A DNA stretch of 64,000 nt from an uncultured Thermoleophilia bacterium (GTDB lineage: Bacteria > Actinomycetota > Thermoleophilia > UBA2241), in contig CAVQSP010000010.1 in NCBI GenBank assembly GCA_963715985.1, forward strand, positions 1 through 64,000, in the 5' to 3' direction. Shown in pieces: positions 1-25,147 of this stretch. A program made the translations under genes and the position numbers. Numbering within the stretch: position 1 is the stretch's first letter; the number at the start of each line of letters is the position of its first letter. Below the pieces are notes generated by a model. It ran no database searches, was not told where the DNA came from, and saw nothing but the letters and a program-made list of their open reading frames with translations.

Positions 1-538
1 TCACGCAGGGCGTCGAGGCTGCCGGCGATGCAGGCGCCGAGCTCGGCGCAGACACGCACCTCCCAGCCGCTGGTCGCCTCGGCGCCGACACCCTTGCTCG
101 TGTTGAGCAGCGCCGCCTCGCACCCGTGCACCGCCGCCGTGGCTGCCGGCACGTCGGTCGGCCGGACGGCGGCGGCGTACTCGTCGATGTTCGGCAGCGC
201 GTCCACGAGCCGCGCGGCGTCGCCGGCGTCCGCCTTGGCGGATCGCGGCGCTCGCCGCTGCGCGGGTCGACGTACATGACGCCCTCGTCGAAGTTGCTGA
301 ACGCACCGGCTCGTCCTCGTCGGTGGGCAGGCGGCGATCGCCGCCTCGACGACCTCGCCGGGGATCCGCACCATCCCGGTCTCGCGATCGATGCTCGCGC
401 CGCCGTCGGCGAAGATGTCGAGCGCCTCGTCGTCCTCGACGAAGACCCCGGTCTCTTCGAGCACCTGCAGGGTCTCTGCGTGGATGGCGTCGAGATCGCC
501 GGCGGAGAGGACTTCGAGCCGCAGTGCGCGGGGTCATG
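1..538 (-). CDS. mttB: Trimethylamine methyltransferase (MttB) family protein, N-terminal part; runs off the window and contains indels
   Basis: Manual translation across frames gives LRLEVLSAGDLDAIHAETLQVLEETGVFVEDDEALDIFADGGASIDRETGMVRIP...FSNFDEGVMYVDPRSGE...DAARLVDALPNIDEY, closely similar to the MttB at 14894-16363. Confidence 0.8.
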
Positions 539-1945
539 ACGACGCACCGACCCTGGTCGCCGCGCAGCGACCGCACCCGGCCGCGGAAGCGCTCGACGCA
601 GTTGATCGGCAGGTCGAGCAGCTCGGCGATGTTGAACTTGGCCTCCATCGCCGTCGGCTCGCCGACGCACTCGTTCTCGAGCTCGGTGAGGCGGCCGATG
701 CCGAACTCGCTGCGCACGTCCTGCATGACGACGCCGTCGGAGAGGTCGCGCACCGAGACGCCGAGCTTGTCGGCGACGTACGCCTTCGCTTCCTTGAGTC
801 GCATGCCACGGGTCATCTGCATCCGCATCACCAGGTCTCCGGCGGTGCGCATCCCGTTCATCCCCGAGGCAAGCATGTGCGCCATGTGCGCGCCCAAGGC
901 ATCGCCGGAGCCCATCTACAAGCCGTCGACGCGCAGGATCTCGATGAAGGCGCGCGAGACTCTCGAGCACGGCGTCGACCGGCGGGAAGGGGTGCATCGG
1001 CACGCCGCAGACTCCCATGCCGACGTTGGGATGCACGGGGATCTGGGCCACGTCCATGCAGGGCTTGATGATGGCGATCGCCCGCGCGACGTTCCAGGCC
1101 ACGCTGCGGCCGGTGTTCATGTTCACGGCCGGACCGAAGATCGTCGCGCCGGCCAGCTGCGCCAGGCGCATCTGCTCGACCGGCCACACGCCGGCCAGCC
1201 GGACGCCCTCCCACTCGAGCTCGCCGTGCATGCCGAGCACGAACTCCGAAGCCATGCCCAGCTCGATGCTCAGGTCGGGGCAGGCGTCGCGCAGTCGGCG
1301 CACCGCCTTGAGCACGGCGAGGAAGTCGGCGTCGCCGGCGGCGCCGGTGGTGTCGAAGTTCATGCCGTCGGCGCCGGCCTCCCACATCGCCTCGCCGATG
1401 CGGACCATGTCCTCCTCGGACTCGGCCGCCGCCTCCTCCTGGGCGGCGCGGGCCTCGTCGATGCGGCCCTCGGGGAGGAGCTGCGACCAGTTGGGGCACG
1501 GCCCGTCGGGCTTCGAGTAGCGACCGAGATCGGCCTGGGCGCCGTACTGCACGGGGATCGTGAGGCGGTACTGCGCCTCCTGCATGAGGCGCTGCTCGCT
1601 GGGGACGACCGTCTTGACGGCCTTGTAGGAGTAGTCCTGCTGCTGCAGTTCGCAGAGGTCGTTGCCCACGTCTTCGGCATCGGTCAGGCTGTCGAGCCTC
1701 GAGGCGCGCAGGACGTTGGATCCGTCGCAGGACAGGACGACCTCGTCGCCGGCCCTGACCCCGGTCATGCGCTCCTGCGAGGCGAAGATGTCGAGCAGGT
1801 GGGCGGCCTCGTCGTCGTCGAGCGGCGGCACTTTGGCGCGCTTCACCGCCGCGGCGACGCCGTCCTCGATGTCGGCGCGCAGCTCGTCGCGCGTCATCTC
1901 CACCGCGGTGCCGTCGCCCATCCTCGTCATCAGCCTGGTACCCAT
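534..1945 (-). CDS. mtbB: Dimethylamine:corrinoid methyltransferase MtbB with in-frame TAG (pyrrolysine) at 916-918; +1 indel near 968; 3' end approximate
   Basis: ATG at 1945 after a GAGGAG RBS. Motifs TRMGDG, DYSYK, PDGP, NFDTTGAAGDADF, GMASEFVLGMHG, FGPAVN, and ...ILRVDGL-TAG-MGSGDALG..HMLASGMNGMRTAGDLVMRMQ, matching the MtbB Pyl site (GVDGI-O-IGVGD). Confidence 0.9.
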
Positions 1946-2135: not shown

Positions 2136-3983
2136 TCACTCCTCCATCGCCGGACCGCCGCGGCGGCGCCTCACGATGAGCCAAACGGCGATGCCGACGA
2201 CCACGACGATCGCGACGATGATGCCGACCCTTGGCGCGAGGTTGGACTCCTCCTCCTCGGCCACTTTGGGCGTCAGGTCGTCGTAGGCCCATGGCATCGA
2301 CGCGCTGCGGAAGGCGAACTGCGGCCCGTCCTTGCCCCCGTTGCCGGTCAGCTCCCAGCCGTCCCAGGTCGATGTGCGGTAGGCCTGCAGCTTGTACGGA
2401 TGGACGGTCACGATGCACGGGCAGTCACCGTACATGACCTGCTGCATCTGGTGGATGTACTGGGCGCGCTTGTCGGCGTCCATCTCCTTTGCCTGCAGCT
2501 TGTCGAGGCGACCGTACTCTTCGTTGACCCACGAGAACTCGTTCCAGCCCTCGATCTGCGCCGGCGAGAAGCACGTGAGCGTCTGGCCGGGGTCGAAGTA
2601 GCCGTCCCAGAGCCAGTAGTAAGCGTCGAAGTCGGGGTAGAACGTGTCGCCCTTGTACCCCCAGATGCTGTCGAAGTAGACCCCCTGATCCTGGACGGTG
2701 AAGGCCACATCGATGCCGACGGCCTCCCACCAGCCCGTGATCTGCTTGCAGGCCCGCGCCGCCTCCGGCGACCCCGACTCGGCCCACAGACGCAGCTTGA
2801 TCGGCTTGCCCTTGTACTCGCGCACGCCGTCGCCGTTCGTGTCGGGGTACCCGGCGTCGTCAAGGATCTGGTTGGCCATGTCCGGATCGTAGTTCCGGGC
2901 CTGACTCTCGTCGGGCGCCCACGCGTAGTCCGGTTCGCTCCAGCCGCCGGGCGGCAGGAACGTGTAGCCGGGTATCGCGCGACCGCCGTAGGCGTTCTCG
3001 ACGATTCTCGCGCGGTCGATTGCGTACTCGAGGGCGCTGCGGAACTGCGGGTCACGCAGGGCCGGGTGCCCGCCGGACTCGCCCTCGTAGCAGTTGAACC
3101 CGACGTAGTCCCAGTTCCAGAAGAGGTACTCGCGCGTGTCGACGCCCTCGGTGCCTTTGACCTTGTCGAACTGCGCGGGAGGGAACATGTAGATGGCGTC
3201 GAGGTTGCCGGCCAGGAAGTCCTGGACCATCGTGTCGCCGTTCTGGTAGACGACGAACAAGACCTCGTCCGGCTTGGGCGCGCCGAAGAGGAAGTCCGGG
3301 TTGGCCGCCATGCGCAGGTAGTCATCCCGCTTCCACTCGACGACCTGCCACGGCCCGTTCCCGATGCATGGCGGGTCGTTCTTGAACGTGACTGTCGCCT
3401 CCTTGACGCCCATCTCTCCGAAGACGTGCTCGGGCAGGCACACCATCCACACGGTCAGCATGTTGGCGACCGGTTGCTTGCAGAAGACCCTGTAGGTGTA
3501 CTTGTCGACCACCTCCGCGCGATCGACGCCTGTGAGGAAGGTGATGAAGTTGGCGATCCGATTCTCGATGATGAAGTTGTAGGTGAAGGCGGCATCGTCG
3601 GCGGTGACCTCCTCGCCGTCGTGCCAGGTCAGGCCCTCGTTCATGTGGAACGTCCAGACGAGCCCGTCGTCCGAGACCTCCCAGCTCTTGGCGATGCCGG
3701 TGTCGGTCGGCTTCAAGGTGTTCCAGTCGCGGCCGACCATGAGCAGGTACTCGTTGACGTAGACCTCGTAGGCGTTCTCGGTCCAGCCGATGAGCGGGTT
3801 CAGGCTGTCGATCTCCTCCATCCAGCCGATCTTGACGACGACCTTGCCTTCGCCGACTGGCGTCGCCGTCTCGTCCTGGCCGAGCGCCGCGCTCGCGCCG
3901 AGCGCAGCGGCGAGACAGACGGTCGCCAGCGCGCACGCCAGCGTAGTCGACCACGTCCTGCGTGTGGTGCTGGTGATCCTCAT
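2136..3983 (-). CDS. ABC solute-binding protein, family 5 (OppA/DppA-like), with C-terminal TM anchor
   Basis: Signal peptide, AKSWEVSDDGLVWTF, WHDGEEVTADD, GNGPW; C-terminal hydrophobic helix followed by RRRR. Confidence 0.9.
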   Translation of the reverse strand: MRITSTTRRTWSTTLACALATVCLAAALGASAALGQDETATPVGEGKVVVKIGWMEEIDSLNPLIGWTENAYEVYVNEYLLMVGRDWNTLKPTDTGIAKSWEVSDDGLVWTFHMNEGLTWHDGEEVTADDAAFTYNFIIENRIANFITFLTGVDRAEVVDKYTYRVFCKQPVANMLTVWMVCLPEHVFGEMGVKEATVTFKNDPPCIGNGPWQVVEWKRDDYLRMAANPDFLFGAPKPDEVLFVVYQNGDTMVQDFLAGNLDAIYMFPPAQFDKVKGTEGVDTREYLFWNWDYVGFNCYEGESGGHPALRDPQFRSALEYAIDRARIVENAYGGRAIPGYTFLPPGGWSEPDYAWAPDESQARNYDPDMANQILDDAGYPDTNGDGVREYKGKPIKLRLWAESGSPEAARACKQITGWWEAVGIDVAFTVQDQGVYFDSIWGYKGDTFYPDFDAYYWLWDGYFDPGQTLTCFSPAQIEGWNEFSWVNEEYGRLDKLQAKEMDADKRAQYIHQMQQVMYGDCPCIVTVHPYKLQAYRTSTWDGWELTGNGGKDGPQFAFRSASMPWAYDDLTPKVAEEEESNLAPRVGIIVAIVVVVGIAVWLIVRRRRGGPAMEE

Positions 3984-4071
3984 GCGATCCCCCCGCCGAT
4001 TCGAGAAGCATCAGAGAGCGACAGGCCTCGGACGAGGCCGCTGGCCGCTGGCCGCGCTTGGCCCGGCAGTT

Positions 4072-4777: not shown

Positions 4778-4830
4778 CGGCGGGGGTGCCTTCTCACCCC
4801 GCCCCACCACTCTGCACCTCGCCCCGAGGG

Positions 4831-6294
4831 TCAGTCCGTCTCGTCCCGCCGCCAAAGGGTCACGCCCTTGGGCATCGAGACGCTGAGGCAGCGCCGCAGC
4901 GCCCGCGACACCGGGTCGGGCCTGCGACCCTGGTCCTCCAGTACCTCGCAACGCTCGATGGCGCTGCGCACGGCGCGCGCGCCGGCCGAGCGGATGGGCT
5001 CCGGCGGCAGGTAGGTCGGCGGCTCGGAGACCAGCGGCGACTGCGCGTAATCGTCCTCGAGGCCGACTGCCAGCGACGCGAGCGTGCGGCCGATGAGGTT
5101 GGACGCCGAGACGCCGTTGCCCGAGTAGCCCAGACCGTAGTTGATGTTGCGGTACTTGCCGAGGGTGCCGACCCAAGGGATGCCGTGCTGGGTGCGCTCC
5201 AGAGGTCCGCCCCAGCGCCACTCGACCGCGAGATCGCGCGTCGCCGGCAGCATGGCGTGCATGTCTGCGACGATCTCCTCGATCTCCCGGGCGTCGTGGT
5301 AGTGGGCCGGGATGATGTGGCCGCCGAAGCCGAGGCGGCCGCCGCCGCGGCCGAAGACGACGCGGTCGTCGGCCGTGCGCTGTGCGTAGTGCACGGCGGT
5401 GCGTCCGTCCGAGAAGGGGCGGCCGCAGACCCATCCGAGGCGGTCCAGGGCGTCGGGCGAGCTCGCCGTGGCGACGACGTGCGATGGGATGATGAAGACG
5501 GTGCGGCGCAGCTCGGGGACGCGCGCGAGCCGGGCGCCGGAGGCGAGGACGACCTTGTCCGCGCTCACGCTCCCGGACGGCGTCTTGACGACGCCGGGCA
5601 ACGTGCGCTGCAGGCCGACCATCGGCGTGGCCTCGTAGATGCGCACGCCGGCCGCGACCGCCAGCCGGCGCAGGCCCTGGGCGAGCAGCGCCGGCTGGAC
5701 GCTGCCTGCCTGCAGGATCAGAACCCCGGCCTCGGCTGCCGGCGACCCCGACAGGGCGACGGCCTCGTCCTTGCCTAGGATGCGGAAGAGATCGTCACGG
5801 CCGAGCTCAGGCGCCAGGAGTGCGGGCTCGAGGACGCCGTCGACCTGGGCCGCGGACAGCGCCACGGTGAGGCCCCCCTCGAACGCGAGGTCGCAGTCGA
5901 TGGCGCCGTCGCTCACCGTGTCGCGGATGTCGTCGAGGCTGCGCCGCGAGGCGTCGAGCAGCCACAGCGCGGGGTCCCGGCCGAAGCGGGAGACGAGCTT
6001 GGGCAGGATGTCGTCCCAGCCGTTCACCCAGCCGCCGTTGCGCCCGCTGGCGCCGGCGCCGCAGTACTCCCGCTCGACGAGCACGACGTCCGTGCCGGGC
6101 GCGAGCCGCTTGATCGACAAGGCCGTCCACAGACCCGTGAACCCGCCGCCGACGATGCACACGTCGGCGCGCTCGGTGGTCGTCAGCGGCACGATGTCAC
6201 CAGTCTGCCAGCGCGGGTCGCCGCCCTGCCAGTAGACGGCCGCGCGCGCCGCGGCGCCGGGCCCTGCCTTCGCCTTGCGTCTGTGGTCCGCCAT
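4831..6294 (-). CDS. FAD-dependent oxidoreductase, DAO/PuuB-like amine oxidase
   Basis: DVCIVGGGFTGLWTA, GASGRNGG, GYSGNGV motifs. Confidence 0.85.
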   Translation of the reverse strand: MADHRRKAKAGPGAAARAAVYWQGGDPRWQTGDIVPLTTTERADVCIVGGGFTGLWTALSIKRLAPGTDVVLVEREYCGAGASGRNGGWVNGWDDILPKLVSRFGRDPALWLLDASRRSLDDIRDTVSDGAIDCDLAFEGGLTVALSAAQVDGVLEPALLAPELGRDDLFRILGKDEAVALSGSPAAEAGVLILQAGSVQPALLAQGLRRLAVAAGVRIYEATPMVGLQRTLPGVVKTPSGSVSADKVVLASGARLARVPELRRTVFIIPSHVVATASSPDALDRLGWVCGRPFSDGRTAVHYAQRTADDRVVFGRGGGRLGFGGHIIPAHYHDAREIEEIVADMHAMLPATRDLAVEWRWGGPLERTQHGIPWVGTLGKYRNINYGLGYSGNGVSASNLIGRTLASLAVGLEDDYAQSPLVSEPPTYLPPEPIRSAGARAVRSAIERCEVLEDQGRRPDPVSRALRRCLSVSMPKGVTLWRRDETD

Positions 6295-6397
6295 CGTCCC
6301 TCGCTCCTCCATCCTTCTCACCGGCGCTCGCGCCGGCGTCTCGTAAAGGCAACGCGACCCGTCGACCGGTCACGTCACGCGTGCGCCTTGAGCCGAC

Positions 6398-7810
6398 TCA
6401 CGTCCCCGGCCGCTGCGCCTCCACCTCGGCGAGGATGTTGTCCAGGCCGAACTTCGCCGCGTCGCTCAGCTCGAAGGCGCGCGGCTCGGCGCGCAGCGCC
6501 GCGACCCGCGCCCTGAGACGGTCGAGCAAGGTCCGTGACCCAGCGGCCTGCCAGGCGTCGTGACGCGTCGTCTCGAGCAGGTCACTCTGCCAAATCTGGC
6601 GGAAGTGCTTGCGCGTGTAGGGCCGGGCCAGGTGGCTGCCGCCCGGCCCGACGGCCTTGATCTCCTCCAGCGCCAGGGCCTCGTCGTCCACGCGCAGCTC
6701 GCTCATGAACGCCTTGGAGAAGCCGATGAGCTCGTCGCCGAGCAGGATGGACTCGTAGCTCGCCTGCAGGCCGGCCTCCAGGTAGCCGACGTCGTGGAGC
6801 AGGGTCGCCCGTGAGAGCATCCCCGTGATGGTCGTCAAGGCGCTCTCCACGCCCCACTGCTCGTCCAGCGTCTTGCTGTCGGTGTGGCCGGCGTAGCTGA
6901 AGCTCGGGAGGTCGTACCAGCGCGCCAGGTCGGTCTGCGCCTGGTAGCCCTGCAGGCAGCCGGCCGACGAGTAGACCTCGTTCATCGTGCGCATGTTCAT
7001 GGCGCCCACCCCGACTCCCCACACGAATGGAGCTCCCGGCTTCACGGCCTGGTGCAGCACGAGTCCGGCGAGCGTCTCGGCATTGGAGACGACGATGACG
7101 GAGGAGATGCTGGCCGGCGCCGTGGTGCCGGCGTTCGGCGCCGGCGCCCAGATGAGCGGCACGTCGAGCTCGGCGCAGGCGATCACCTTGCTGGCGCCGT
7201 CCTCGTCGAACATGAGGGGCGGCACCGGCATGGCGTAGATGCCGAAGCTGTCCGTCTCGCCGGCGAAGGCCGCCATCTCCTTCATGCGCCCGAGGATGTG
7301 GCCGTCGCGCGGAGCGACCAGCAACGGCTTGCGCGTGCCGCGCATCATGGCGTCCACCTGCACGAGGTCGTCGATGGCCTGAGGCGCGTCCTCCGGCAGG
7401 CCCATGCTCATCACGAAGTCGATGTTGGGCAGCTTCTCGCAGAGCGCGGCCATGCCCTCCACGTCGGCCCTGCGCACGCGGCGGCGCTCGCGCGTGTCGG
7501 GGTCGCAGACGTAGAGCACGTCGCTGCCGGTGCCGCAGTAGCTGTGATGGGCGTCGAGCACCATGGGCTCCGTGTCGCCGCCGCGCGGCTTGATCGTCCA
7601 GTCGCGCGGGGCGCTCTTGACGGCCGCCTCGACCAGCTCGGCGGGGATGCGCACGCGGGTCCCCTCGACCCTGGCGCCGGCGCCGGCGAAGACCTCCACC
7701 GCCGGCGCGTACTTGACCTCGATGCCCGTCTCCGCAAGCACCTCCAGGGTCGCTTCGTGCACGCGCGCGCATACCGCGTCGTCCCAGATCGTCAGGCGAG
7801 CTTCGTTCAT
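6398..7810 (-). CDS. MttB-family methyltransferase, non-pyrrolysine (His at the Pyl position)
   Basis: VHEATLEVLAETG, GTTAPAS, YDLPSFSYAG-H-TDSK, HDVGYLE, IKAVGPGG. Confidence 0.88.
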   Translation of the reverse strand: MNEARLTIWDDAVCARVHEATLEVLAETGIEVKYAPAVEVFAGAGARVEGTRVRIPAELVEAAVKSAPRDWTIKPRGGDTEPMVLDAHHSYCGTGSDVLYVCDPDTRERRRVRRADVEGMAALCEKLPNIDFVMSMGLPEDAPQAIDDLVQVDAMMRGTRKPLLVAPRDGHILGRMKEMAAFAGETDSFGIYAMPVPPLMFDEDGASKVIACAELDVPLIWAPAPNAGTTAPASISSVIVVSNAETLAGLVLHQAVKPGAPFVWGVGVGAMNMRTMNEVYSSAGCLQGYQAQTDLARWYDLPSFSYAGHTDSKTLDEQWGVESALTTITGMLSRATLLHDVGYLEAGLQASYESILLGDELIGFSKAFMSELRVDDEALALEEIKAVGPGGSHLARPYTRKHFRQIWQSDLLETTRHDAWQAAGSRTLLDRLRARVAALRAEPRAFELSDAAKFGLDNILAEVEAQRPGT

Positions 7811-8073
7811 GCCGCCACCTCCTTCGCCTCCGCCCGCAGGGCGGGGACCGATGTGTGCTGTGTGCTCCTGCGACCAGACCGGAAGCGGGTGTCACGTCGG
7901 GTCGCCGGGAGTAGACCGCACCGCAGGCACACGCGAGGTGCGGGGCGGGGCGGATGGAGCCGGCCGCCACTCTACCATCGCCGTTCGACGGGGGGCCAGC
8001 GACCGGCTGCCGAGTTGGAAGGGCATGGCTCTGCCGCTGGACAACGGCGGGCGGCGGCGGCCATGCTTCGCGC

Positions 8074-9288
8074 GTGACGAACGTCCAGCAGATCTACGAC
8101 GACGGCCTCTGCATGCAGTGCGGCACGTGCGCGGCGCTTTGCCCCGCCAGGGCGATCGACCTGGCGTGGGACGTGCGCATCGGCTACCGCCTGACCGTGG
8201 ACGAGCGCAAGTGCACCGATTGCGGGACCTGCCGCGAAGTCTGCCCCGGCCCCGGCCTCGACTTCACCGCCGGGGCCTGGTGGCGGGCGCGCAACGAGGG
8301 CGCCCCGAGCCGCGACTATCTGGGGCCGTGGCGCCGGCTGTGGTTCGGGTGGGCCGCCGATCCGGTCGTGCGGCACGCGGGCGCCTCGGGCGGCGTCGCC
8401 ACCGCGCTTCTGACGGGGGTGCTCGAAGAAGGCCTCGTCGACACGGTCATCGCGGCAGGCACCGACCCGGCCAATCCCATGGAGGCCGTGGGCGTCGTGT
8501 GCCGCACCGCCGCCGAGGTCGCCGCCTGCCGGGGATCCAAGTACAACGTGGTGGCGCTGAACACGCAGCTGCGGCGCGTGCTCGACGAGCCAGGCCGCTA
8601 CGCCGTGGTCGGCCTGCCCTGCCACGTGCAGGGGCTGCGGCTCGCGCAGCGCCGCTCTCCGCGGCTGCGCGAACGCGTCGTCCTCAGCCTCGGCATCTTC
8701 TGCGGGCTCACCAACGAGCCGCGCGCAACCGAGATCTGCGCGCGGCGGGCCGGACTCGATCCGGCCACCCTCAAGAGCGTCTCCTACCGCGGCCCGGGCT
8801 GGCCCGGCGGCCTGCGCCTCGAGACCCGCGACGGGCGCGTGCGCCGACGCGACTTCCCCGACTACTTCGATCGCTACTTCTGGGCGTACATGCCGCCGCG
8901 CTGCCGCTTCTGCCCGGACTCGCTGGCCGAGCTCGCCGACATCTCCGTCGGCGACGCCTGGCTCGAGCGGTTCGAGGGGTCGGACGGCGTGAACGACGTC
9001 GTCGTGCGCACGCCGGCCGGCGAGTCCTTCATGGCAGAGCTCGCGGATCGTCTCGCACTGATCGAGGCGACACCCGACGACGTGGTCTTCTCCCAGCGCG
9101 AGACGTACCACCTCGAGCGCGAGGTGGGGCTGGGGCGCCTCTGGCTCCGCTCCCTCGCCGGCAAGCCGCTGCCGCGCTACCCCGGCTTGCCGACCAGCGT
9201 CACGCCACGGCAGCGGTTCCTGGGCCTGAAGGACGCCGCCCAGGAGCGTCTCCACCGCCTTCTCGCCGACAGGCGCTGGCCGCTCTGA
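8074..9288 (+). CDS. Coenzyme F420 hydrogenase/dehydrogenase beta-subunit (FrhB)-family Fe-S protein
   Basis: Two CxxCxxCxxxCP motifs, GASGGVAT, GSKY, VVGLPC, YRGPGWPG, RCRFC, ADISVGDAW. Confidence 0.85.
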   Translation: MTNVQQIYDDGLCMQCGTCAALCPARAIDLAWDVRIGYRLTVDERKCTDCGTCREVCPGPGLDFTAGAWWRARNEGAPSRDYLGPWRRLWFGWAADPVVRHAGASGGVATALLTGVLEEGLVDTVIAAGTDPANPMEAVGVVCRTAAEVAACRGSKYNVVALNTQLRRVLDEPGRYAVVGLPCHVQGLRLAQRRSPRLRERVVLSLGIFCGLTNEPRATEICARRAGLDPATLKSVSYRGPGWPGGLRLETRDGRVRRRDFPDYFDRYFWAYMPPRCRFCPDSLAELADISVGDAWLERFEGSDGVNDVVVRTPAGESFMAELADRLALIEATPDDVVFSQRETYHLEREVGLGRLWLRSLAGKPLPRYPGLPTSVTPRQRFLGLKDAAQERLHRLLADRRWPL

Positions 9289-9323
9289 CCCGCAGCCGCT
9301 CGCGCCTCGCCCGGCGTCCGGCG

Positions 9324-9375
9324 GTCACTCGTCGATCGCCCGGGCCCGCCCCCTGCGGCGCAGGAGGAGCGCCGC
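9324..9375. repeat. 52-bp direct repeat, copy 1 (duplicate of the SBP gene 3' end)
   Basis: Identical to 10917-10968. Confidence 0.95.
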
Positions 9376-9426
9376 GACCGCCCACGAGCCCGCACCAAGT
9401 CCCCGCCTCTTCGTCAAGAACCGAGT

Positions 9427-9459
9427 AACTTGTATGCCATACAACTTGTATGGCATACT
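9427..9459 (+). promoter_or_regulatory. AT-rich palindromic operator/promoter of the ATPase gene
   Basis: GTATGCCATACAA-C-TTGTATGGCATAC perfect inverted repeat (9432-9458), overlapping TTGTAT...CATACT just upstream of ATG 9466. Confidence 0.7.
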
Positions 9460-9465
9460 CCTTCT

Positions 9466-10845
9466 ATGAAGGAGCTCTTCATCGGCAGAGGCAGGGAGCT
9501 CAAGAGCCTGGAAGAGGCCTGGGACCAGCCGGGCTCCAGTCTCGTGCTGGTCTGGGGCCGACGCCGCGTCGGCAAGACGCGACTTCTCGGCCGCTTCGCC
9601 GAGGCCAAGCGGGCCGTGTTCTACGGCGCCACCCAGCAGGCGCCGGCGGCCGAGCTGGCGGCGTTCTCAGACGCAGTGCGAGGCGCGCTCGCCCCGTCGG
9701 GGACCGACCTCCTCGCCCACGGCGACTTCCCCAACTGGGTGTCCGCACTCGACTACCTCGCCGAGCGCGCTGCCTCACGGAGACTCCTGGTCGTCCTCGA
9801 CGAGTTTCCCTACCTCGTGGCGACCGAGCCGGCGCTGCCATCGATCGTGCAGCGCTTCTGGGATCATCGCGGCCGCGAGTCGAAGCTGATGCTCGTCTTG
9901 TGCGGTTCGGCGCAGGCGATCATGGTCGATCTGCAATCGCAGAACGCACCGCTGTTCGGGCGCGTCGACCGCCGTGTTCACGTGGAGCCCTTCGCCGTGC
10001 AGGACGCGGCGCTGTTCACTCCGGGAGTCGCGGCCGTTGATGCGGCGACGATCTACGGGATCCTCGGCGGCATGCCGACGTACCTGTCGCGCTGGCGCCC
10101 CGGCCAGGGCAGAGACGCCAACCTACGCCGGCTGTTCGGCGAAGCCGCGTCGCCGCTGATCGAGGAGGGCGAGTTCGTTCTGACGAGCGAACTGCCGGAC
10201 GCTTCGGGCTACTTCCGCATCCTGCACGGCATGGCCGCCGGCAATCGCACCTTCAACGCCTTGCGCGACTTCGCCGCCATCGACATCACGCGCCAGCTCG
10301 ACCGGCTCCAGCGTGTCGGGCTTGTGCAGCGCGAGGTGCCGGTGACCGAGGACCCCCTGCGCTCGAAGCGCGTGCTGTATCGCATCGGCGACAACTTCCT
10401 CCACTTCTGGTTTCGGTTTGTTCATCGGCGGCGCGTCGACGTCGCCCGCGGGCTCGGTCGGGAGGTCGTCGATCGCGCGATCATTCCCAGGCTGAGCGAC
10501 TACATGGGGGAGCCCTGGGAGGAGATGTGCCGCGACCACGTCAGGCGACTGGCGGCCGGCGGCGCACTGCCGGTCGAGGTATCGACGGTGGGGCGCTGGT
10601 GGAACCGCGACAACTCGATCGAGATCGACGTGGTCGGCCTCGACGATCGCAAGGTGGTGCTGGCCGGTTCGGTCAAGTGGGCGGCATCCAGTGGTCGAGC
10701 TGAGCTGCGGCGACTGCAAAGGGCGGTCGAGGCGTTGCCGAACCGGGCACCACGCGTTGAGTTGGCGCTCTTCGCACGCGAGCGAGTGAGAGACGTCGCG
10801 CCCGACGAAGCGCTCACCGTCACGGCGGACGATCTGTACGCATAG
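9466..10845 (+). CDS. Archaeal-type AAA+ ATPase with C-terminal DUF234 (PD-(D/E)XK-like) domain
   Basis: FIGRGREL, Walker A GRRRVGKT, Walker B VVLDEFPY, LCGS, DNFLHFWFRF, GRWW...EIDVV...GSVKW. Confidence 0.88.
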   Translation: MKELFIGRGRELKSLEEAWDQPGSSLVLVWGRRRVGKTRLLGRFAEAKRAVFYGATQQAPAAELAAFSDAVRGALAPSGTDLLAHGDFPNWVSALDYLAERAASRRLLVVLDEFPYLVATEPALPSIVQRFWDHRGRESKLMLVLCGSAQAIMVDLQSQNAPLFGRVDRRVHVEPFAVQDAALFTPGVAAVDAATIYGILGGMPTYLSRWRPGQGRDANLRRLFGEAASPLIEEGEFVLTSELPDASGYFRILHGMAAGNRTFNALRDFAAIDITRQLDRLQRVGLVQREVPVTEDPLRSKRVLYRIGDNFLHFWFRFVHRRRVDVARGLGREVVDRAIIPRLSDYMGEPWEEMCRDHVRRLAAGGALPVEVSTVGRWWNRDNSIEIDVVGLDDRKVVLAGSVKWAASSGRAELRRLQRAVEALPNRAPRVELALFARERVRDVAPDEALTVTADDLYA

Positions 10846-10916
10846 GGCGGACGGCGACGGATCGCCGTCGCTGGCGCCGATACTGCTTCATCACGGATCG
10901 GCGCCGCACGCTCTCT

Positions 10917-10968
10917 GTCACTCGTCGATCGCCCGGGCCCGCCCCCTGCGGCGCAGGAGGAGCGCCGC
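10917..10968. repeat. 52-bp direct repeat, copy 2
   Basis: Identical to 9324-9375; encodes the SBP C-terminus and stop codon. Confidence 0.95.
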
Positions 10969-12753
10969 AACCACTACGACGAGCGCGCCCACGACCCCGG
11001 CGGCGATCCACGGCGTCGCGCTCGTCCCGGCCTCGGCGGCGGCGGTCACGGGCCGCAGGTTCAGGTAGGTGTCGACGTTGCCGGCCGTAAAGAAGGCCGG
11101 GCCGTTGCCGTCGTTGACGCGCGTCCAGCCCGTCCAGCCGGCGGTGTCGTAGGCCTGGAAGAAGTCGGGGTAGGCGACGACCACCCACGGCGTCTGCTCG
11201 TACATGATCTGCTGCATCCGCCAGATGGACTGCTGGCGCTCCACCGGGTCGAGTTGCGCCGCTTGTTCGTCGGCGAGCTTGTCGTACTCGGCGTTCGACC
11301 AGCAGGGCTCGTTGGTGGCGCCGATCTGCCAGCTTGCCTCGGCGGTCAGCGTCTGGCCGGGGTCGACGTAGCCCAGCCAGCTGTCGATGTACAGGTCGAA
11401 GTCGGGCCGGTACGTATCGCCCTCGAAGTTCCACACACGGGCGCTGAGGGCGCCGGCGTCCAGCACCGAGAACTCGATCTTGATGCCGAGCTCCTGCAGC
11501 CAGCCGGTGATGAGCTTGCCCTCGGTCTGGGACGGTACATTGTCGGAGGTCGCGTACAGGCGCAGCGTGATCGGCTTGCCCTTCGCGTCGACACGCTTGC
11601 CGTCCTTGAGCGGGTAGCCGGCCTCGTCGAGCAGCCGGCCGGCCTCAGCGCGGTCGAAGCCCACCTCCTCGGCGGCCGACGGCTGCCAGTGGTAGTCGGG
11701 GTCCTTCCAGGTGTTGGGCGGGACGATGGTGGTGCCGGGCGCAGCGTAGCCCTGGAACGCGATCGTGCAGAGCTTGGCCCGGTCGATCGCGTAGTTGAGC
11801 GCGTTGCGGAACTTCCAGTCCTTGAGCACCGGCGCCCCGAGCGAATCCGGGCTGTCGAAGCAGTTGAAGTTCAGGTACTCCCAGTTGTAGTAGGGGTACG
11901 CGAGCGCCTCGGTGCCCGGCTCGGACTCGAGCGTGCGGAACTGGGCCACGGGGATGCCCCACGCCGCGTCCAGATTGCCCGACTTGTAGTCCATGGTCAT
12001 CGTGTCCGGGTTCTGGTAGGTGGCGAAGATGATCTCGTCGACGGTCGGCGTCGTGCCGTAGTAATGCGGGTTGCGCTCCATGCGCAGGAACTTGCCCTTG
12101 GCGACCTCGGACGTGAAGAACGGTCCGCTGCCGACGATGGGCACCGGGTTGGTGAAGCTCGTCTGCGCCGCCTTCGGCGTCACCTTGCTCCACACGTGCC
12201 GCGGCAGGATCGGGATGAAGATGCGCTCCATGTCCGCCTTCGGGCGCGAGCAGGTGATCCGCACGGTGGTCGGGTCGAGTGCCTTGGCGCCGAGGATCCC
12301 GCGCGTCGCCAGCGCCATGTTGAACATCTCGTTCTTCACGATGTAGTTGTAGGTGAAGGCGACGTCGTCGGCCGTGAGCGGCTCGCCGTCGCTCCACTTG
12401 AGGTCCGGGCGGATCTTGATGGTCCAGACCTTGCCGTCGGCCGAGAGCCCGCCGTTCTCCCTGGTCGGGTATTCGGTGGCCAGGTCGAGTGTCGGCTTGT
12501 CGGAGACGCCGAACCCGAAGAGGAAGCTGTAGTTGATGGACCAGATCTCGTAGTCCTGGTTCTGCCAGCCGATGAACGGGTTCAGCGTGTCGGGCTCGAC
12601 GGTCCAGCCGATCTTGAGGACGACCTGGTCCGCCGAGGCAGACGGAGACGGCTCCGACGCGGAGGCCACGGCCGCGAGGAGCAGGGCGGCCACGGCCAGC
12701 GCGACGAGCAGAGCGGGAAGCCGGAGCGCGGTCCGGCGGAGTGCCTCGATCAT
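10918..12753 (-). CDS. ABC solute-binding protein, family 5, with C-terminal TM anchor
   Basis: IGWTVEPDTLNPF, KWSDGEPLTADDVAFT, GSGPF; C-terminal TM plus RRRGR. Confidence 0.9.
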   Translation of the reverse strand: MIEALRRTALRLPALLVALAVAALLLAAVASASEPSPSASADQVVLKIGWTVEPDTLNPFIGWQNQDYEIWSINYSFLFGFGVSDKPTLDLATEYPTRENGGLSADGKVWTIKIRPDLKWSDGEPLTADDVAFTYNYIVKNEMFNMALATRGILGAKALDPTTVRITCSRPKADMERIFIPILPRHVWSKVTPKAAQTSFTNPVPIVGSGPFFTSEVAKGKFLRMERNPHYYGTTPTVDEIIFATYQNPDTMTMDYKSGNLDAAWGIPVAQFRTLESEPGTEALAYPYYNWEYLNFNCFDSPDSLGAPVLKDWKFRNALNYAIDRAKLCTIAFQGYAAPGTTIVPPNTWKDPDYHWQPSAAEEVGFDRAEAGRLLDEAGYPLKDGKRVDAKGKPITLRLYATSDNVPSQTEGKLITGWLQELGIKIEFSVLDAGALSARVWNFEGDTYRPDFDLYIDSWLGYVDPGQTLTAEASWQIGATNEPCWSNAEYDKLADEQAAQLDPVERQQSIWRMQQIMYEQTPWVVVAYPDFFQAYDTAGWTGWTRVNDGNGPAFFTAGNVDTYLNLRPVTAAAEAGTSATPWIAAGVVGALVVVVAALLLRRRGRARAIDE

Positions 12754-13530: not shown

Positions 13531-13550
13531 TTGATTGGTCGTACAATAAA
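13531..13550. promoter_or_regulatory. Putative TetR operator, copy 2, overlapping a TACAAT -10 box
   Basis: TTGATTGGTCGTACAATAAA in the divergent tetR/aguA intergenic region. Confidence 0.7.
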
Positions 13551-13621
13551 CACACGGTCAGAAGAATGCAAGGGGCCGCGACCGGAATCCCGGCCGCGCG
13601 GCCCTGCCCGAAGGAGTCGTC

Positions 13622-14689
13622 ATGCCGCCAGCCGCCGACCCGCGCACCACAGGCCCCTCGACGCCGACTCCTGCGTCTCTCGGCTTCCGCATGCCGGCGG
13701 AGTGGGAGCCGCACGAGCGCTGCATCATGGGATGGCCGACGGAGCTCCGCCACGACGTCTGGGGCGAGCACTACCTGCTCGCCATGGCGAGCTACGCGGC
13801 CGTCGCCCACGCAATCGCCGAGTTCGAGCTGGTCCTCATGCTCGCGCGACCCGGCGAGGGCGCAGTCGCACGCAGCTACCTGGGCCGCGATGTGGAGGTC
13901 GTCGAGATGCCCATCGACGATTCCTGGCTGCGCGACAGCGGCCCGATCTTCCTCACGCACCCGGACGGCAGGCTGGCGATGAGCGACTTCGTCTTCAACT
14001 CCTGGGGCGAGAGGTACCTGCCCTACGACAACGACGCCGCCGTCGGCGCGCGACTGGCTGAGCTCTTCGGCGTCGAACGGTTCGCCGCCCCGATGGTCCT
14101 CGAGGGGGGCAGCATCACCGTCGACGGAGAGGGCACGCTGATCACCACCGAGAGCTGCCTGCTGCACCCGTCGCGCAATCCGGGCCTGACCAAGGACGAG
14201 ATGGCTCAGGTGCTCAAGGACTTCCTCGGTGTGGAGAAGGTCATCTGGCTCATCTCCGGGCTCGGACTCGATGAGGATCCCGACACAGACGGCCACGTGG
14301 ACGGGGTCGGCGCCTTCGTGGGCCCCGGCAGGGTGCTGCTCCACATGGTGCGCGACCCCCAGCACCCCGACTACGAGAACCTGCTCGAGAACAGGCGGCG
14401 CTTGGAGACGACCGACGCGGAGGGGCGCACGCTGGAGGTGGTCGAGTTCGATTGGCGCAGCCGTCCGGTGCTCATCGGGGACACGCCGATCGTCGAGACG
14501 TACATCAACTCGTACTTCGCCAACGGCGCCCTGATCGTGCCGACCAGCGGCACGGCCGACGACGAGGCGGGGCTCGAGCTGCTGCAGGAGATCGTGCCCG
14601 GGCACGAGGTCGTCGGCGTCCCGTGCCCGGTCATCGGCTACGGCGGCGGCGGCATCCACTGCATCACGCAGCAGGTGCCGCGGGTGTGA
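13622..14689 (+). CDS. aguA: Agmatine deiminase family protein
   Basis: RMPAEWEPH, DDSWLRDSGP, LEGGSI, DTDGHVD, GGGIHCITQQVP. Confidence 0.92.
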   Translation: MPPAADPRTTGPSTPTPASLGFRMPAEWEPHERCIMGWPTELRHDVWGEHYLLAMASYAAVAHAIAEFELVLMLARPGEGAVARSYLGRDVEVVEMPIDDSWLRDSGPIFLTHPDGRLAMSDFVFNSWGERYLPYDNDAAVGARLAELFGVERFAAPMVLEGGSITVDGEGTLITTESCLLHPSRNPGLTKDEMAQVLKDFLGVEKVIWLISGLGLDEDPDTDGHVDGVGAFVGPGRVLLHMVRDPQHPDYENLLENRRRLETTDAEGRTLEVVEFDWRSRPVLIGDTPIVETYINSYFANGALIVPTSGTADDEAGLELLQEIVPGHEVVGVPCPVIGYGGGGIHCITQQVPRV

Positions 14690-14893
14690 CCGGGCGGGCG
14701 GCCGCGAGGCACATGGCCGGCGCGGGTGCAGCCCGACGTGGAGAGTCCGGCCGCCCATAACTTGTGCGAATCTCGCCACCCTCGCGAGCCGCCCGCTACG
14801 GATTGCTCGGCGAAGTTGAGCGCCGGCGGCGGCGGAGCTTTACTCGCGCGCCGGGCGGCCATACCCTCGAGACTCCGCGACGAAGGTAGGGCG

Positions 14894-16363
14894 ATGAAGA
14901 GGAACCTGCAGGCCGGACGGCCCAGCTCGGGCGGGTTGAGCCTCAGCGTGTTCACCGAGGCCGAGCTCGCCGATATCCATCTCGGCTCCCTGGAGGTCCT
15001 GGAGCGCGCCGGCATGTGGGTGGAGGACGACGGCGCCCTGGACATCTTCAGCGACGGCGGCTGCCTGGTCGACCGGGAGGCGCACACGGTGCGCATCCCG
15101 CCACACCTCGTCGAGGACGGCCTGCGCTCGTGCCCGCCCAAGACCTACCTGTACGGCCGCGACCCCGCCAACGACATCGTCCTCGAGGCCGGTCGCGTGT
15201 ACGTCTCCAACTTCGACGAGGGCATCATGATCGTCGACGTGCGCACCGGCGAGTACCGCCACCCCGTGCTCACAGACGTGCACGAGGCGGCGCGCCTCGT
15301 CGACGCCCTCAGCGACATCGACACCTACGAATCGGCCGTGCATCCGGTGGACGTGCCCGAGGAGACCGCCAGCCTCTACAAGTGGGAGGCGGCCATCGCC
15401 AACACGAGCAAGCCGGTCGGTACCGAGGCCGTGAGCGCCGCCGACGTGAAGAAGCTCGTCGAGATGGCGACCGTGGTCGCGGGCGGCGAGGACGAGTTCC
15501 GTCGCCGCCCCCTCATCGGCTTCGGCTGCTGCCCGGTGAGCCCGCTGCAGCTGCCTCGCGATGCCACCGACGTGATCATCGAGTCGGCGCGCGCCTGGTG
15601 TCCGGACACGATCCTGAGCATGGCCATGTCCGGCGGGTCGTCGCCGGTCACCCTCGCGGGCACGCTCGTGCTGCACAACGCCGAGGTGCTCGGAGGCATC
15701 GTGTTGGCACAGCTCACCGAGCGCGGCTGCCCGATCACCTACGGCTCGTCGACCACGGCCATGGACCTCAGGCTGGCCACCGCCTCCGTCGGATCTCCGG
15801 AGCTCGCCCTGTTCAGCGCCGCCTGCGCGCAGATGGCGCGGCGATACGGTCTGCCGACCTTCGTCGCCGGGTTGTAGACGGACGCCAAGCTGGGTGACGC
15901 GCAGACAGGTCACGAGAAGACCCTCACCGGACTCCTTCCTGCGTTGGCAGGTGCCAACCAGATCTACGGGGCGGGGATGATCGAATCGGGCGTCACCTTT
16001 GACTTCGGCCAGCTGGTCATGGACAACGAGATCGCGCGCATGATCAAGCGCGTGGTCGGCGGCATCACGGTCACGGACCAATCCATGGCCGTGGACGAGA
16101 TCATCGGGGTCGGCGCGATGGGCGACTTCCTCTCGCTGGACTCGACCCTGCGCCACATGCGCGAGCTCACCCAGCCGGTCATCCTCGACCGCCGCGTGCG
16201 CGAGGACTGGGAGGCGCAGGGGAGCCGCGACCTGGCCACGGTGGCGCACGCCCGGGCGCTGGAGCTCGTGGAGTCGCACCAGCCGACGCCGCTGGACGCC
16301 GACGTCGCCAGGCAGCTGCGCAGCATCGTGGAGGCGGCCGACCGCGAGCGCGGCGTGGCCTGA
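14894..16363 (+). CDS. mttB: Trimethylamine:corrinoid methyltransferase MttB with in-frame TAG (pyrrolysine) at 15875-15877
   Basis: Two listed ORFs are in one frame, joined by TAG: [49 protein letters not shown], matching the MttB Pyl site (VAGS-O-SDAK..QAGHEKT); 489 aa with readthrough. Confidence 0.93.
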
Positions 16364-16587: not shown

Positions 16588-16622
16588 ATCGCGGTGAGGA
16601 CCATGCCTGCCGTGCCGCCTGG

Positions 16623-18093
16623 CTAGCCCCGCCCGGTGTCGCCGGCCTTGACCAGCCGGCGGAGCTCCGCGCGCACGTCCTCGGGGAGCGGGTCGGGCGC
16701 GTGCGTGCGCAGAATCTCACGCGCCTGCTCCTCCGCATTCTGCAGCGCCCCGTGGCGCCCGCCGGTCAGCCACGCGTCGTACGGCGTCCGGTCCCAGACT
16801 CCCGGCCGCCAGATCTCGCCCAGGTGCCGGCGCGTGTGCTTCTCGGCCAGGTACGTCCCGCCGTGCCCGACCGCGCGGATGGCGTCCAGCGCGAGCGTCT
16901 CGTCATTCACCTCGATGCCCCCGGCCATGTGCGCGACGATGCGGTACACCTCGACCTCCCTCAGCAGGTGCGCATAGCTCAGCGTCGTCGAGCCGTCCAG
17001 CAGCCCGCAACCGCTCATCATCTCGGCGCCCGCAGCCACGCTGGCCAGGGTGGAGAGAGCATCGTCCACGGCAGCCTGCCAGCCGGGCTCTTTGGCGCCG
17101 CTGGCCATGGTGCCCATGTTCACGGCGAAGCCGAACGTGGTGCGCCATCTGCGTGGCGGCGGCGGCAAGGACGTAGTCCTCCGGGCTGCCGCCGGTGTAG
17201 CCGCCGGTCTTGAGGTCCATCACGGAGGGCGCGCCGGCCATGAAGCAGGGCGCGCCGGGGTGGGCCAGCTGGACCAGCACAAGACCGGCGACAACGGCCG
17301 CGAGGTTCACGACCAGGTTGCCGGCCAGGCTGGCCGGCGCCGAGGCGCAGGCGAGCGTCAACGAGAGAAAGCCCACACGCACGCCGGCCTCCGCCGCGAC
17401 CAGCGCCGCCTCCAGGCTGACGGCGTCGTTGGCGAGCGGGTCGATGGGGCAGGCGATGAGGCTCATGAGCGGCCGGCGGCGGAGCTCCTCGGCCCCGCCG
17501 GCCACCGTCCGCGCCATCTCCACGGCGCGCCGCGTCGTCTCCGCGCCGACCACGTCCACGGCCTGGAAGTGCTTGCTCGTGTTGGCGAAGACGGCCACGA
17601 GCTCGTAAAGCGGCCGCATTTCCCGCGGCACGTCCTCGGCGGTGACGATCGGGCCCCAGCAGAAGCCGACCTCGGGGACGGCGTCCACAAAGCGCGCCGC
17701 GTCGGCCACGTCGGCCCCGGTGCTGCGGCGACGCTCGCCCGTGGCCGGGTCCAGCACTCACACGCCGCAGCCGTCGTTGCTCAGATAGCTGTGCCAACCG
17801 TCCAGCACGAGATCGCAGCGGGGGTCACGGGCGGCGAGCAGCGGCGCCTGCGGCGCCGCCTCCAGCGCCGCCCGCACCACCGCCTCGGGCAGGCGCGCGA
17901 CCTGCGACGTGCGGTCCACACGGCAGCCGCCGCGTTCCAGCACGTCGAGCGCGCGCGCCAGCGGGAAGCGCACGCCCACCTCCGCCAGCGTGAGCACAAC
18001 GCCATCCTCGAGCCGCGCCACGTCGGCGTCGTCCAGCACGCGCCAGCGGCGCCGGCACGGGATCGGCGCGATCCGCCCACTTGTCTCAGCCAC
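16623..18093 (-). CDS. MttB-family methyltransferase, non-Pyl, interrupted by in-frame TGA (17758-17760) and a frameshift near 17136
   Basis: Three ORF pieces (17758-18120, 16903-17757, 16623-17168) are collinear with the paralogue at 23750-25147 (MDLKTG..TGG.PED; SGAKEPGWQ). Confidence 0.8.
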
Positions 18094-18248
18094 AGGCACG
18101 CCGCCCTCCCCTCCGCACACCGTGAACGCTCCCCGGTCGCAACGTTACACCGCTATACTCAACGTGTCCTTCGGGACGAACGAGACGCCGGGGGGGACGT
18201 CCGGTCGCTCGGCCGGCACGTCCGTGGCGTCGCAGCGAAGGGGGAGAC

Positions 18249-23749: not shown

Positions 23750-25147
23750 TCAGGCGATGCCGACCAGCCGCCGCAGTTCGGCGTCCAACGCCGCGTCCAG
23801 CGCCGGCGGCCGGTGCTCGGCGACGATGCGCGCCACGCGCTCGTGGGCGCGGTCGACGGCGGTCTCGCGGCCGCCACCCGCCCAGTAGCGGTGCGGCTGG
23901 TCGACGGTGAGGGGCGCGACGCCGGGCGGCGAGGCCGGGGCGGCCGCGGACGGGCGATCCCGGGAGCCACCATCCAGGCCGGAGAGGTCGATGCCGGCGG
24001 CGATCTCACGGGCCTGCGTCATCGTGTCGGCGGCGAGCGCCATCTCCTCGTAGCTGAAGATGCGCCCGCCCGATACCATGCCGACGCCGGTCAGCATGTC
24101 CACGCCGGCGGCCAGGGAGAGGAAGGTGGTGGTCGTGTCGTCGAGCGCCGACTGCCAGCCGGGCTCTTTGGCACCCGAGGAGTTGATGCCGCACTGCGTG
24201 GGCAGGCCGTAGAACTGGCCCACGTCGCCGACGGCGGCGCCCATGATGGTGTCCTCCGGGGCGCCCCCCGTGAAGTCCCCGGTCTTGAGGTCCATCACGC
24301 TCGGGATGAAGCAGATGAACACGGGGGCGCCCGGGAAGGCGGCCTGCACGACGCACACGGCGCTCAGCGCCTCGGCGATACCCACCACCAGCGAGCCGGC
24401 CATGGTGATCGGCGTGGTGGAGCCGCCCATGGGCATGGTCACGAACCCTATCGGGACGCCGGCCTCGGCAAAGACCAGGCCGGCCTCGAGCGTGCCGGCG
24501 TCGTTGCCCAGCGGTGTGACCGTGCCCAGCAGCGCGCTGACCGGCGGAGCGGCGCGCAGCGCCTCGGCGGAGCCCGCCACCGCGCGCGCCATCTGCACCG
24601 CGATCTCCGCGAGCTCAGGTTCCACCACGGTCACGGTCTGTACGTGCTTGCCCGTGTTGGCGAGAGCCAGATACAGCTCGTGCAGGCCGCGGACCTCGGC
24701 CGGCCGGTCCTGGGCGCTCACGGCCGGCCAGCAGAAGTCGAGCTCGGGCATGGCGTCCACGACACGCGAGATCGTCGCCACGTCGGCGGCAGTCGTGCCG
24801 CGCTTCTCGCCACTCTCGATGTCGTAGATCTCCACGCAACAGCCGTCCGTGGTGAGCAGCGAGCGCTCGCCGGTGACGAGCGGTGTCCCGGCCCTTGCGC
24901 CGAGCGTCAGGCGGGATGGGGCGAGCGCCACGAGGCGGCGGACCAGGTCGGGAGAGAAGCGGACGCGCGCATCGTCCACGTCGGCGCCTTGCTCGGCCAG
25001 CGCCTGCCTGGCGCGTGCCGAGGGGATTGAGACGCCCACCTCGGCGAGCACGGCGAGCGCAGCCGCGTCGAGCTGCTCCAGCTCGCTCCGGGAGAGGATC
25101 TCGAGCCTGCCGGCGGAGCCGACGCTGTGCGTGTGGGAGGCGTGCAT
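23750..25147 (-). CDS. MttB-family methyltransferase, non-Pyl (Ser at the Pyl position)
   Basis: NTGKHVQ, GGSTTPITMAGSLV, MDLKTG, YGLPTQCGIN-S-SGAKEPGWQ. Confidence 0.88.
   Translation of the reverse strand: MHASHTHSVGSAGRLEILSRSELEQLDAAALAVLAEVGVSIPSARARQALAEQGADVDDARVRFSPDLVRRLVALAPSRLTLGARAGTPLVTGERSLLTTDGCCVEIYDIESGEKRGTTAADVATISRVVDAMPELDFCWPAVSAQDRPAEVRGLHELYLALANTGKHVQTVTVVEPELAEIAVQMARAVAGSAEALRAAPPVSALLGTVTPLGNDAGTLEAGLVFAEAGVPIGFVTMPMGGSTTPITMAGSLVVGIAEALSAVCVVQAAFPGAPVFICFIPSVMDLKTGDFTGGAPEDTIMGAAVGDVGQFYGLPTQCGINSSGAKEPGWQSALDDTTTTFLSLAAGVDMLTGVGMVSGGRIFSYEEMALAADTMTQAREIAAGIDLSGLDGGSRDRPSAAAPASPPGVAPLTVDQPHRYWAGGGRETAVDRAHERVARIVAEHRPPALDAALDAELRRLVGIA

Follow-up and report, generated by a model that had tools for sequence, protein, structure and literature searches.

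Bacteria known to use pyrrolysine (Pyl) usually carry split pylSn/pylSc and pylBCD close to their methylamine methyltransferase genes, and in these bacteria regulation of pyl gene expression keeps the read-through of UAG in check. Organisms that demethylate di- and trimethylamine are recognizable by their Pyl-type methyltransferases; where this demethylation takes place in peat and soil, it competes with, or feeds, methylotrophic methanogenesis. Here we describe a dimethylamine methyltransferase gene (mtbB) with an in-frame amber codon, located near the beginning of a stretch of 64,000 nucleotides (contig CAVQSP010000010.1, positions 1 to 64,000) that is referred to hereafter as the window.

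As far as the available text of PMC10805028 goes, Actinobacteriota metagenome-assembled genomes (MAGs) from permafrost peatland express Pyl-encoding mttB and mtbB. The accessible part of PMC9630628 counts two Actinobacteria among 81 PylRS-encoding bacteria, a count that recurs in the accessible part of PMC11764691 (two Actinobacteria among 81 bacterial PylRS genomes), and the portion of the PMC9630628 supplement at hand contains PylSc of a 'Thermoleophilia_bacterium' and of an 'Actinobacteria_bacterium'. Among the literature on pyrrolysine or mttB in Thermoleophilia, Actinomycetota or Actinobacteriota, judged by titles and the starts of abstracts, only PMC10805028 concerns the trait there. With the phenomenon published and near-identical sequences publicly available, the finding that a Pyl-type mtbB occurs in Actinomycetota is already known, and the window itself adds nothing beyond public data and print. 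An earlier account of this DNA, made from its letters alone (the sequence-only reading), had called an Actinomycetota-like host notable. The novelty was overstated, as Pyl genes of this phylum had appeared in PMC10805028 and PMC9630628, to the extent that these texts are available.

An MtbB gene with an amber codon on the pyrrolysine column

Judged by its sequence, the locus is a genuine MtbB (dimethylamine:corrinoid methyltransferase) gene with an amber codon on the Pyl column. Its parts are as follows, where frame B lies one base further on than frame A and is taken from 966 to 535.

1960-1951, minus strand: Shine-Dalgarno-like GAGAGGAGGA, 5 bases upstream of the mtbB ATG, as read from the sequence
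969..1945, minus strand: N-terminal part of mtbB, 325 codons in frame A, beginning with ATG 1945-1943
965..975, minus strand: frame break from A to B with one extra base, GCCGTG[C]TCGAGAG
919..966, minus strand: 16 codons of mtbB, SRVSRAFIEILRVDGL, between the frame break and the amber codon, in frame B
918-916, minus strand: in-frame TAG, the predicted pyrrolysine codon, residue 343 of the corrected reading
918-819, minus strand: Rfam PYLIS_2 (RF02509, the mtbB pyrrolysine insertion sequence), starting at the TAG, model positions 1-100, 52.2 bits against a gathering score of 36
557..915, minus strand: C-terminal part of mtbB after the TAG, in frame B, beginning MGSGDALGAHMAHMLASGM, with 96% nucleotide identity to the related locus L001
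534..556, minus strand: disturbed 3' end of mtbB with an ATGA overlap, the TGA at 536-534 being one base out of frame

The two pieces together match the whole profile of the MtbB family. In Pfam Dimeth_Pyl (PF09505; gathering score 25), frame A covers profile positions 4-336 of 463 (expectation value (E) 5e-108, 362 bits) and frame B positions 338-462 of 463 (E 1.6e-47, 163 bits), while in NCBIfam TIGR02368 they cover positions 1-338 (265.9 bits) and 341-465 (123.1 bits) of 466, respectively. The similarity on both sides of the stop, on which the sequence-only reading had built its case, is therefore borne out. A protein search with the N-terminal piece returned 2307 matches, the best being 94% identical; nearly all of the best 120 of these are 342-344 amino acids long, i.e., they are models ending at the TAG, and the homologue sequences retrieved end in ..RVDGL or a close variant of it. 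A search of the Protein Data Bank (PDB) with MtbB gave 0 matches, so no solved MtbB structure was available for comparison.

Beyond its 325 codons, frame A turns into arginine-rich nonsense. The 16 residues SRVSRAFIEILRVDGL that frame B contributes ahead of the TAG are identical to the C-terminal 16 of the homologues P0003 and P0007, and the order ..SRVSRAFIEILRVDGL-TAG(918-916)-MGSGDALGAHMAHMLASGM.. is exactly the one that had been written down from the letters. Within the second piece, the TAG is residue 17, and residues 2-130 align with TIGR02368 columns 341-465. As this alignment starts with residue 2 on column 341, the TAG falls on column 356, the pyrrolysine column of the family profile, in agreement with the earlier claim of an MtbB gene with a Pyl-type amber codon at 916-918. 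In relatives, the N-terminal piece runs to column 355 and the C-terminal piece resumes at column 357, with the TAG between the two. The predicted peptide across the amber codon is ..VDGL-Pyl-MGSGDALGAHMAHMLASGMNGMR. The span of 534..1945 once given for the gene is right at its beginning, the ATG at 1945, and wrong at its 3' end, where the TGA at 536-534 is out of the TAG's frame. As assembled, the gene cannot be followed in one frame even when the UAG is read through: a base is inserted at 967/968, and beyond 556 the frame lacks a stop.

A scan of species-representative genomes with MtbB yielded 589 stretches encoding a relative, from which 73 loci were retained; all locus-based counts refer to these 73 best loci (L001 etc.). 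Of the 73, 72 share the position of the TAG, which is in frame and preceded by ..DG(L/Y); the remaining one, L036, ends at a contig end before the site. The frame is open for 103-171 codons past the TAG in 69 of the 72; two reach the contig end first, and in L028 a stop is found 49 codons after the TAG. Copies of mtbB are numerous in the relatives (127 MtbB N-terminal ORFs in 72 loci), and the TAG comes next in 124 of these 127 open reading frames (ORFs), the other three, with a sense codon, being cut by a contig end. Over the first 32 codons after the TAG, variation among 66 distinct sequences amounts to 0.25/0.15/0.40 at codon positions 1/2/3, and the stretch after the TAG is therefore under coding constraint in the TAG's frame.

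The PYLIS_2 match at the amber codon contains non-standard pairs at 4 of the 11 positions of helix 1 and 1 of the 7 of helix 2. Across the 66 distinct sequences, 58.8% of the cells are paired in helix 1 and 93.5% in helix 2, which is nearly invariant across the relatives. Both sides of the pair at columns 75:90 were changed in 13 of the 66 sequences, and the covariation score was 0.125, compared with 0.099 on average after shuffling and 0.115 when the partner was displaced by -2. As independent structural evidence the element was rejected as weak, the match being mostly a matter of coding-sequence conservation.

At least two families of methylamine methyltransferases (mtbB and mttB) have a UAG at their own Pyl position, and the same holds for the orthologue of a third gene. 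The MttB-family genes of the window are as follows.

1..537, minus strand: Pyl-type mttB directly downstream of mtbB, its 5' part only, as the window starts within the gene (Pfam MTTB, E 2.3e-13)
6398..7810, minus strand: MttB-family paralogue without an amber codon (non-Pyl; Pfam MTTB, E 7.7e-69; TIGR02369, 287 bits, below 525)
14894..16363, plus strand: intact mttB (trimethylamine methyltransferase) with an in-frame TAG at 15875-15877
15875..15974, plus strand: Rfam PYLIS_3 (mttB), starting at the mttB TAG, 79.7 bits against a gathering score of 38
16623..18144, minus strand: MttB-family paralogue spread over three frames (Pfam MTTB positions 29-118, 129-331 and 335-492 in three ORFs)
23750..25147, minus strand: MttB-family paralogue without an amber codon (non-Pyl; Pfam MTTB, E 4.2e-71; TIGR02369, 302 bits, below 525)

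When read through, the intact mttB at 14894-16363 reaches 665.3 bits with TIGR02369, for which the equivalog cut-off is 525. It aligns over residues 2-485 with PDB chain 7xcm_A (E 2.8e-121), and its TAG lies opposite residue 334, which we take to be the Pyl of that solved trimethylamine methyltransferase. In L035, the orthologue of the gene at 1-537 has a TAG after ..SVIAGA, its Pyl position. Thus ordered, mtbB comes first and the Pyl-type mttB second in a minus-strand pair, with the intact Pyl-type mttB 13 kb away and three non-Pyl MttB paralogues elsewhere in the window. Neither the intact mttB, nor the mttB starting at 537, nor the out-of-frame 3' stop of mtbB had figured in the sequence-only reading.

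Frame breaks, decoding partners and rival explanations

The explanation that we favor, with good though not complete confidence, is that this is a genuine Pyl-type mtbB of an uncultured Actinomycetota, that Pyl is supplied by machinery encoded elsewhere, and that the frame breaks are assembly errors; Pyl decoding, enzyme activity and the artefactual nature of the frame breaks are the parts of it that we infer. The UAG at 918-916 would be read as pyrrolysine via a tRNA(CUA)/PylS system encoded elsewhere in the genome. In the resulting full-length protein of ~465 residues, Pyl would bind and activate dimethylamine, one methyl group of which would then be passed to a Co(I) corrinoid protein, likewise encoded elsewhere. 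Three observations suggest that the organism reads UAG as Pyl: two or three gene families conserve the TAG, the codons behind it are under coding constraint, and PylSc sequences of a Thermoleophilia and an Actinobacteria bacterium are public. The sequence-only reading had the organism translating a 22nd amino acid and demethylating dimethylamine. The gene and the Pyl codon stand; decoding and activity in this organism are predictions from them, and the frame of this copy, as assembled, is disturbed at two places.

The extra base at 967/968 is present in the window and absent from L001, L002, L003, L004 and L005 (5/5) in a nucleotide alignment. Once that base is removed, translation gives the ..DAVSRVSRAF.. 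of P0003 and P0007, and the proposal that an indel near 968 had broken the ORF is thus upheld by five of five relatives. At the 3' end, frame B meets no stop after ..RSLRGD down to base 1. In all four relatives with complete ends (L001, L002, L003 and L005), a stop is located 2-8 codons after ..RSL(R/G)G. As frame B is open to base 1 and the TGA is out of frame, a second one-base change between 556 and 537 is implied, although the lesion is not placeable within 537-556, the relatives being too divergent there. In the gene at 537-1, one base fewer is found at each of positions 237, 303 and ~321 relative to both L031 and L035 (2/2). A 40-base deletion was also considered for this gene and ruled out, given that L031 and L035 are equally short; its lesions are three one-base deletions. 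The paralogue at 16623-18144 contains one extra base at 17136 relative to both L045 and L048 (2/2).

Frame breaks are not confined to the methyltransferase genes. The gyrA gene at 39245-41792 (plus strand) is split, with Pfam DNA_topoisoIV positions 1-196 and 193-431 in different frames and an extra G in a G-run at the junction near 40005-40013. The recF gene at 33859-35207 is split over two frames. For gyrB, a phase change near 37400 was seen in a frame walk of G+C at third codon positions (GC3) only, and its N-terminal ORF (36917-37894) gave no Pfam match. As essential genes are broken too, the assembly appears to be rich in indels. The substitutions between the window mtbB and L001 number 10/7/32 at codon positions 1/2/3, and this third-position excess gives no sign of long-term decay. 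Indel errors of the assembly, not biology, are therefore the likeliest source of both the insertion at 967/968 and the shifted stop at 536-534. Frame breaks in mtbB or in corrinoid genes also occur in some MAG loci of relatives (L019, L038, L010, L026, L046, L051 and L070); in P0025, the frame changes ~15 codons upstream of the TAG, so that the TAG is bypassed.

As a separate observation, the DnaN ORF at 32543-33877 (plus strand) has a C-terminal S4 RNA-binding domain and a shortened third clamp domain; probably, two genes were run together by a frame error.

Several observations weigh against the explanation that we favor. Taken alone, neither MtbB piece attains the TIGR02368 equivalog cut-off of 369.1 (265.9 and 123.1 bits), each falling below it because the gene is split. 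The TAG is also an ordinary stop in the window, where it ends 10 of 38 Pfam-supported ORFs (TGA, 28; TAA, 0), the next in-frame stop beyond TAG-terminated ORFs being 0 to 811 codons further. With TAG otherwise a normal stop, UAG read-through must be limited somehow. No pylT was found in the window, where ARAGORN gives tRNA-Ala only and Rfam gives no further tRNA, either at the gathering score or at E up to 0.5, and no CUA-anticodon tRNA was found by ARAGORN within 10 kb of mtbB in the 73 loci. PylS, PylB, PylC and PylD were not found among the window ORFs (Pfam, n=52; NCBIfam, n=15), which were chosen with a GC3 filter through which some genes may have dropped out. For the 73 loci, NCBIfam did not find them either among representatives of 275/275 ORF clusters; the cut was E 1e-12 for the first 60 representatives and E 1e-30 for the remaining 215, a threshold that could miss a short PylSn. 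With tblastn at E 1e-5, the window yielded neither a corrinoid protein gene nor a RamA-like one. Moreover, the indels confirmed by at least two relatives (967, 237, 303, 321 and 17136) all lie in MtbB/MttB-family genes, and no such confirmed indel occurs in 4811-7826 or 13532-14693; real decay would fit these two facts too.

The sequence-only reading had proposed to look for pylT, pylS/pylSn, pylBCD, corrinoid proteins and RamA, of which none turned up in the 64-kb window. Corrinoid or RamA-like genes do occur in some relatives: 15 of the 73 loci contain corrinoid protein genes or fragments, and two contain a RamA/AcsV-like gene. In L048 (6034-6222), the mttB orthologue is directly followed by what appears to be a remnant of a corrinoid protein gene, no more than its final 63 codons; at the matching place in the window (16364-16620), no such remnant was detectable.

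Decay is the content of one rival, which we regard as unlikely yet worth weighing: the organism decodes Pyl, but mtbB and the mttB behind it are recent pseudogenes, with true mutations at 967/968, 537-556, 237, 303 and 321, and other copies provide the dimethylamine function. Besides the confinement of the confirmed window-specific one-base indels to MtbB/MttB-family genes and their absence from ~4.2 kb of other well-covered genes, it can point to about five or six lesions in the first 1 kb of the window and to the many paralogues in relatives (127 N-terminal ORFs in 72 loci), which would make one loss cheap. It has to contend with gyrA and recF, which cannot be pseudogenes and are frameshifted in the same window, as well as with substitutions relative to L001 that are mostly at third positions (10/7/32); paralogue-rich regions are, we would expect, also those where assembly polishing fails.

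Far less probable is a second rival, by which the organism lacks Pyl, the TAG is a true stop, and the product is a protein of 342 residues, whether or not the C-terminal piece is made separately. The missing Pyl machinery in the window and the 73 loci and the frequency of TAG as a stop in the window (10/38 ORFs) would suit it. It leaves unaccounted for a TAG at one column in 72 of 72 complete relatives, the 103-171 in-frame codons past it (apart from the two loci that end at a contig end and the 49 codons of L028), the coding-pattern variation just after it, and the TAG that mttB, a second family, keeps on its own Pyl position. PylSc of the lineage in public data (PMC9630628, in the part of its supplement at hand) and the expression of such genes in Actinobacteriota MAGs (PMC10805028, in the available text) also speak against a true stop. 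Least probable of all, to the point of being scarcely credible, is a programmed frame change upstream of the UAG, i.e., +1 recoding coupled to Pyl insertion. P0025, which also changes frame ~15 codons upstream of its TAG, might seem to favor it, but its shift occurs at another site and leads into another frame. None of the five closest relatives has the extra base, the top 342-aa homologues read straight across the stretch uninterrupted, and many other window genes are shifted too; on these grounds, a programmed frameshift was rejected.

Host, surroundings and wider meaning

The window has a G+C content of 70% and contains no N. Of the 73 best loci, 48 are labelled Thermoleophilia, 13 Actinomycetes, nine Actinomycetota (at phylum level only) and three Deltaproteobacteria, so that 70 of 73 bear an Actinomycetota label. 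The closest, L001, is PKYM01000001.1, with a protein identity of 97% and a DNA identity of 96%. Synteny with MAG contigs of relatives, at 79-92% nucleotide identity, extends over 4811-7826, 9378-12222, 13532-18092 and 20182-25136. By its sequence, the host is thus Actinomycetota-like, presumably an uncultured Actinomycetota most like MAGs labelled Thermoleophilia; the sequence-only reading, which had taken the genome for a high-GC and probably actinobacterial one, was right in this respect. Other features of the window are as follows.

2136-4010, same strand as mtbB and upstream of it: family-5 solute-binding protein gene
Remainder of the first 25 kb: TetR/BetI-like regulators, FAD oxidoreductase, FrhB-like iron-sulfur protein, agmatine deiminase and ABC transport parts (Pfam/NCBIfam)
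Replication origin region, within the window: dnaA, dnaN, recF, DciA-domain gene, gyrB and gyrA

Between the MttB paralogues lie a gene for an FrhB/FdhB-like protein with two 4Fe-4S motifs (7915-9288, plus strand) and one for an 'archaeal' ATPase_2/DUF234 protein (9289-10845, plus strand), a stretch (7915-10845) that is partly matched by L005, L047 and L048. On the minus strand, a 1391-codon stop-free frame (45316-49488) comprises aminotransferase, GcvT aminomethyltransferase and serine hydroxymethyltransferase domains, with a glycine riboswitch at 49308-49419 (minus strand) directly ahead of it; this could be a real fusion, or stops could have been lost to indels. A thiamine pyrophosphate (TPP) riboswitch match below threshold (29273-29415, minus strand; 32.6 versus 54.3 bits, E 0.015) is located just upstream of genes for a ThiT-like thiamine transporter and a thiamine pyrophosphokinase.

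More than 25 of the 73 related loci, including L007, L008, L011, L017, L025, L033, L038, L040 and L041, have tRNA-Thr genes (anticodon TGT or CGT) no more than a few kb from mtbB. In L017 (18334-20965), from a MAG labelled Actinomycetes, genes for HdrC-like and HdrA2-like heterodisulfide reductase proteins lie less than 10 kb from mtbB. In L058 (4-1814), from an Actinomycetota MAG, subunits I and II of an aa3-type cytochrome c oxidase are encoded less than 10 kb from a Pyl-type mtbB, placing genes of aerobic respiration beside an oxygen-sensitive corrinoid pathway.

The loci suggest that Pyl-type methyltransferase genes are common and multi-copy in Thermoleophilia-like MAGs, a matter that the literature mentions only in passing. 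A broader proposal, which we advance tentatively and consider rather doubtful, is that Pyl use, far from being rare in Actinomycetota, is widespread among Thermoleophilia of soil and peat and comes with many paralogues. In such genomes, mtbB and mttB would be separate from the pyl genes and mostly from corrinoid genes as well, and TAG would still be a frequent stop; at least one relative (L058) has the aa3-type oxidase genes noted above near its mtbB. If so, Pyl-dependent methylamine demethylation would occur in facultative or oxygen-exposed soil bacteria, and read-through of UAG would need to be limited by means as yet undescribed for this phylum. For annotation, the two parts into which an amber codon divides gene models of mtbB and mttB in high-GC MAGs should be united, and frame breaks of indel-rich assemblies should not be taken as biology.

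Comparison with known systems

UAG use here would be expected to resemble that in the Pyl systems of Bacillota and Desulfobacterota, as Pyl in a few genes and as a stop elsewhere. The difference lies in the arrangement, as no pyl gene was found less than 10 kb from mtbB (73 loci) or in the 64-kb window.

With the MtbB of methanogens, the gene shares a full-length profile match, a TAG on column 356, and a PYLIS_2 match starting at the TAG. It differs from methanogen MtbB in its bacterial, high-GC host, in having no adjacent corrinoid (mtbC-like) gene in the window, and in a poorly formed PYLIS helix 1. Its Pyl codon is at residue 343 of the corrected reading instead of profile column 356 because the N-terminal part is shorter. 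The solved MttB with Pyl334 (PDB 7xcl and 7xcm) belongs to a neighbouring family, and the likeness to it is that of the window's mttB at 14894-16363, not of mtbB.

To the extent that the sources are available, the permafrost-peatland Actinobacteriota MAGs (PMC10805028) and the PylSc sequences (PMC9630628) agree with the present locus in phylum, in the presence of both gene families, and in amber-truncated gene models; how the loci are built is not described there. From the MAG genes, as far as the available text of PMC10805028 describes them, the window's copy is set apart by its frame breaks.

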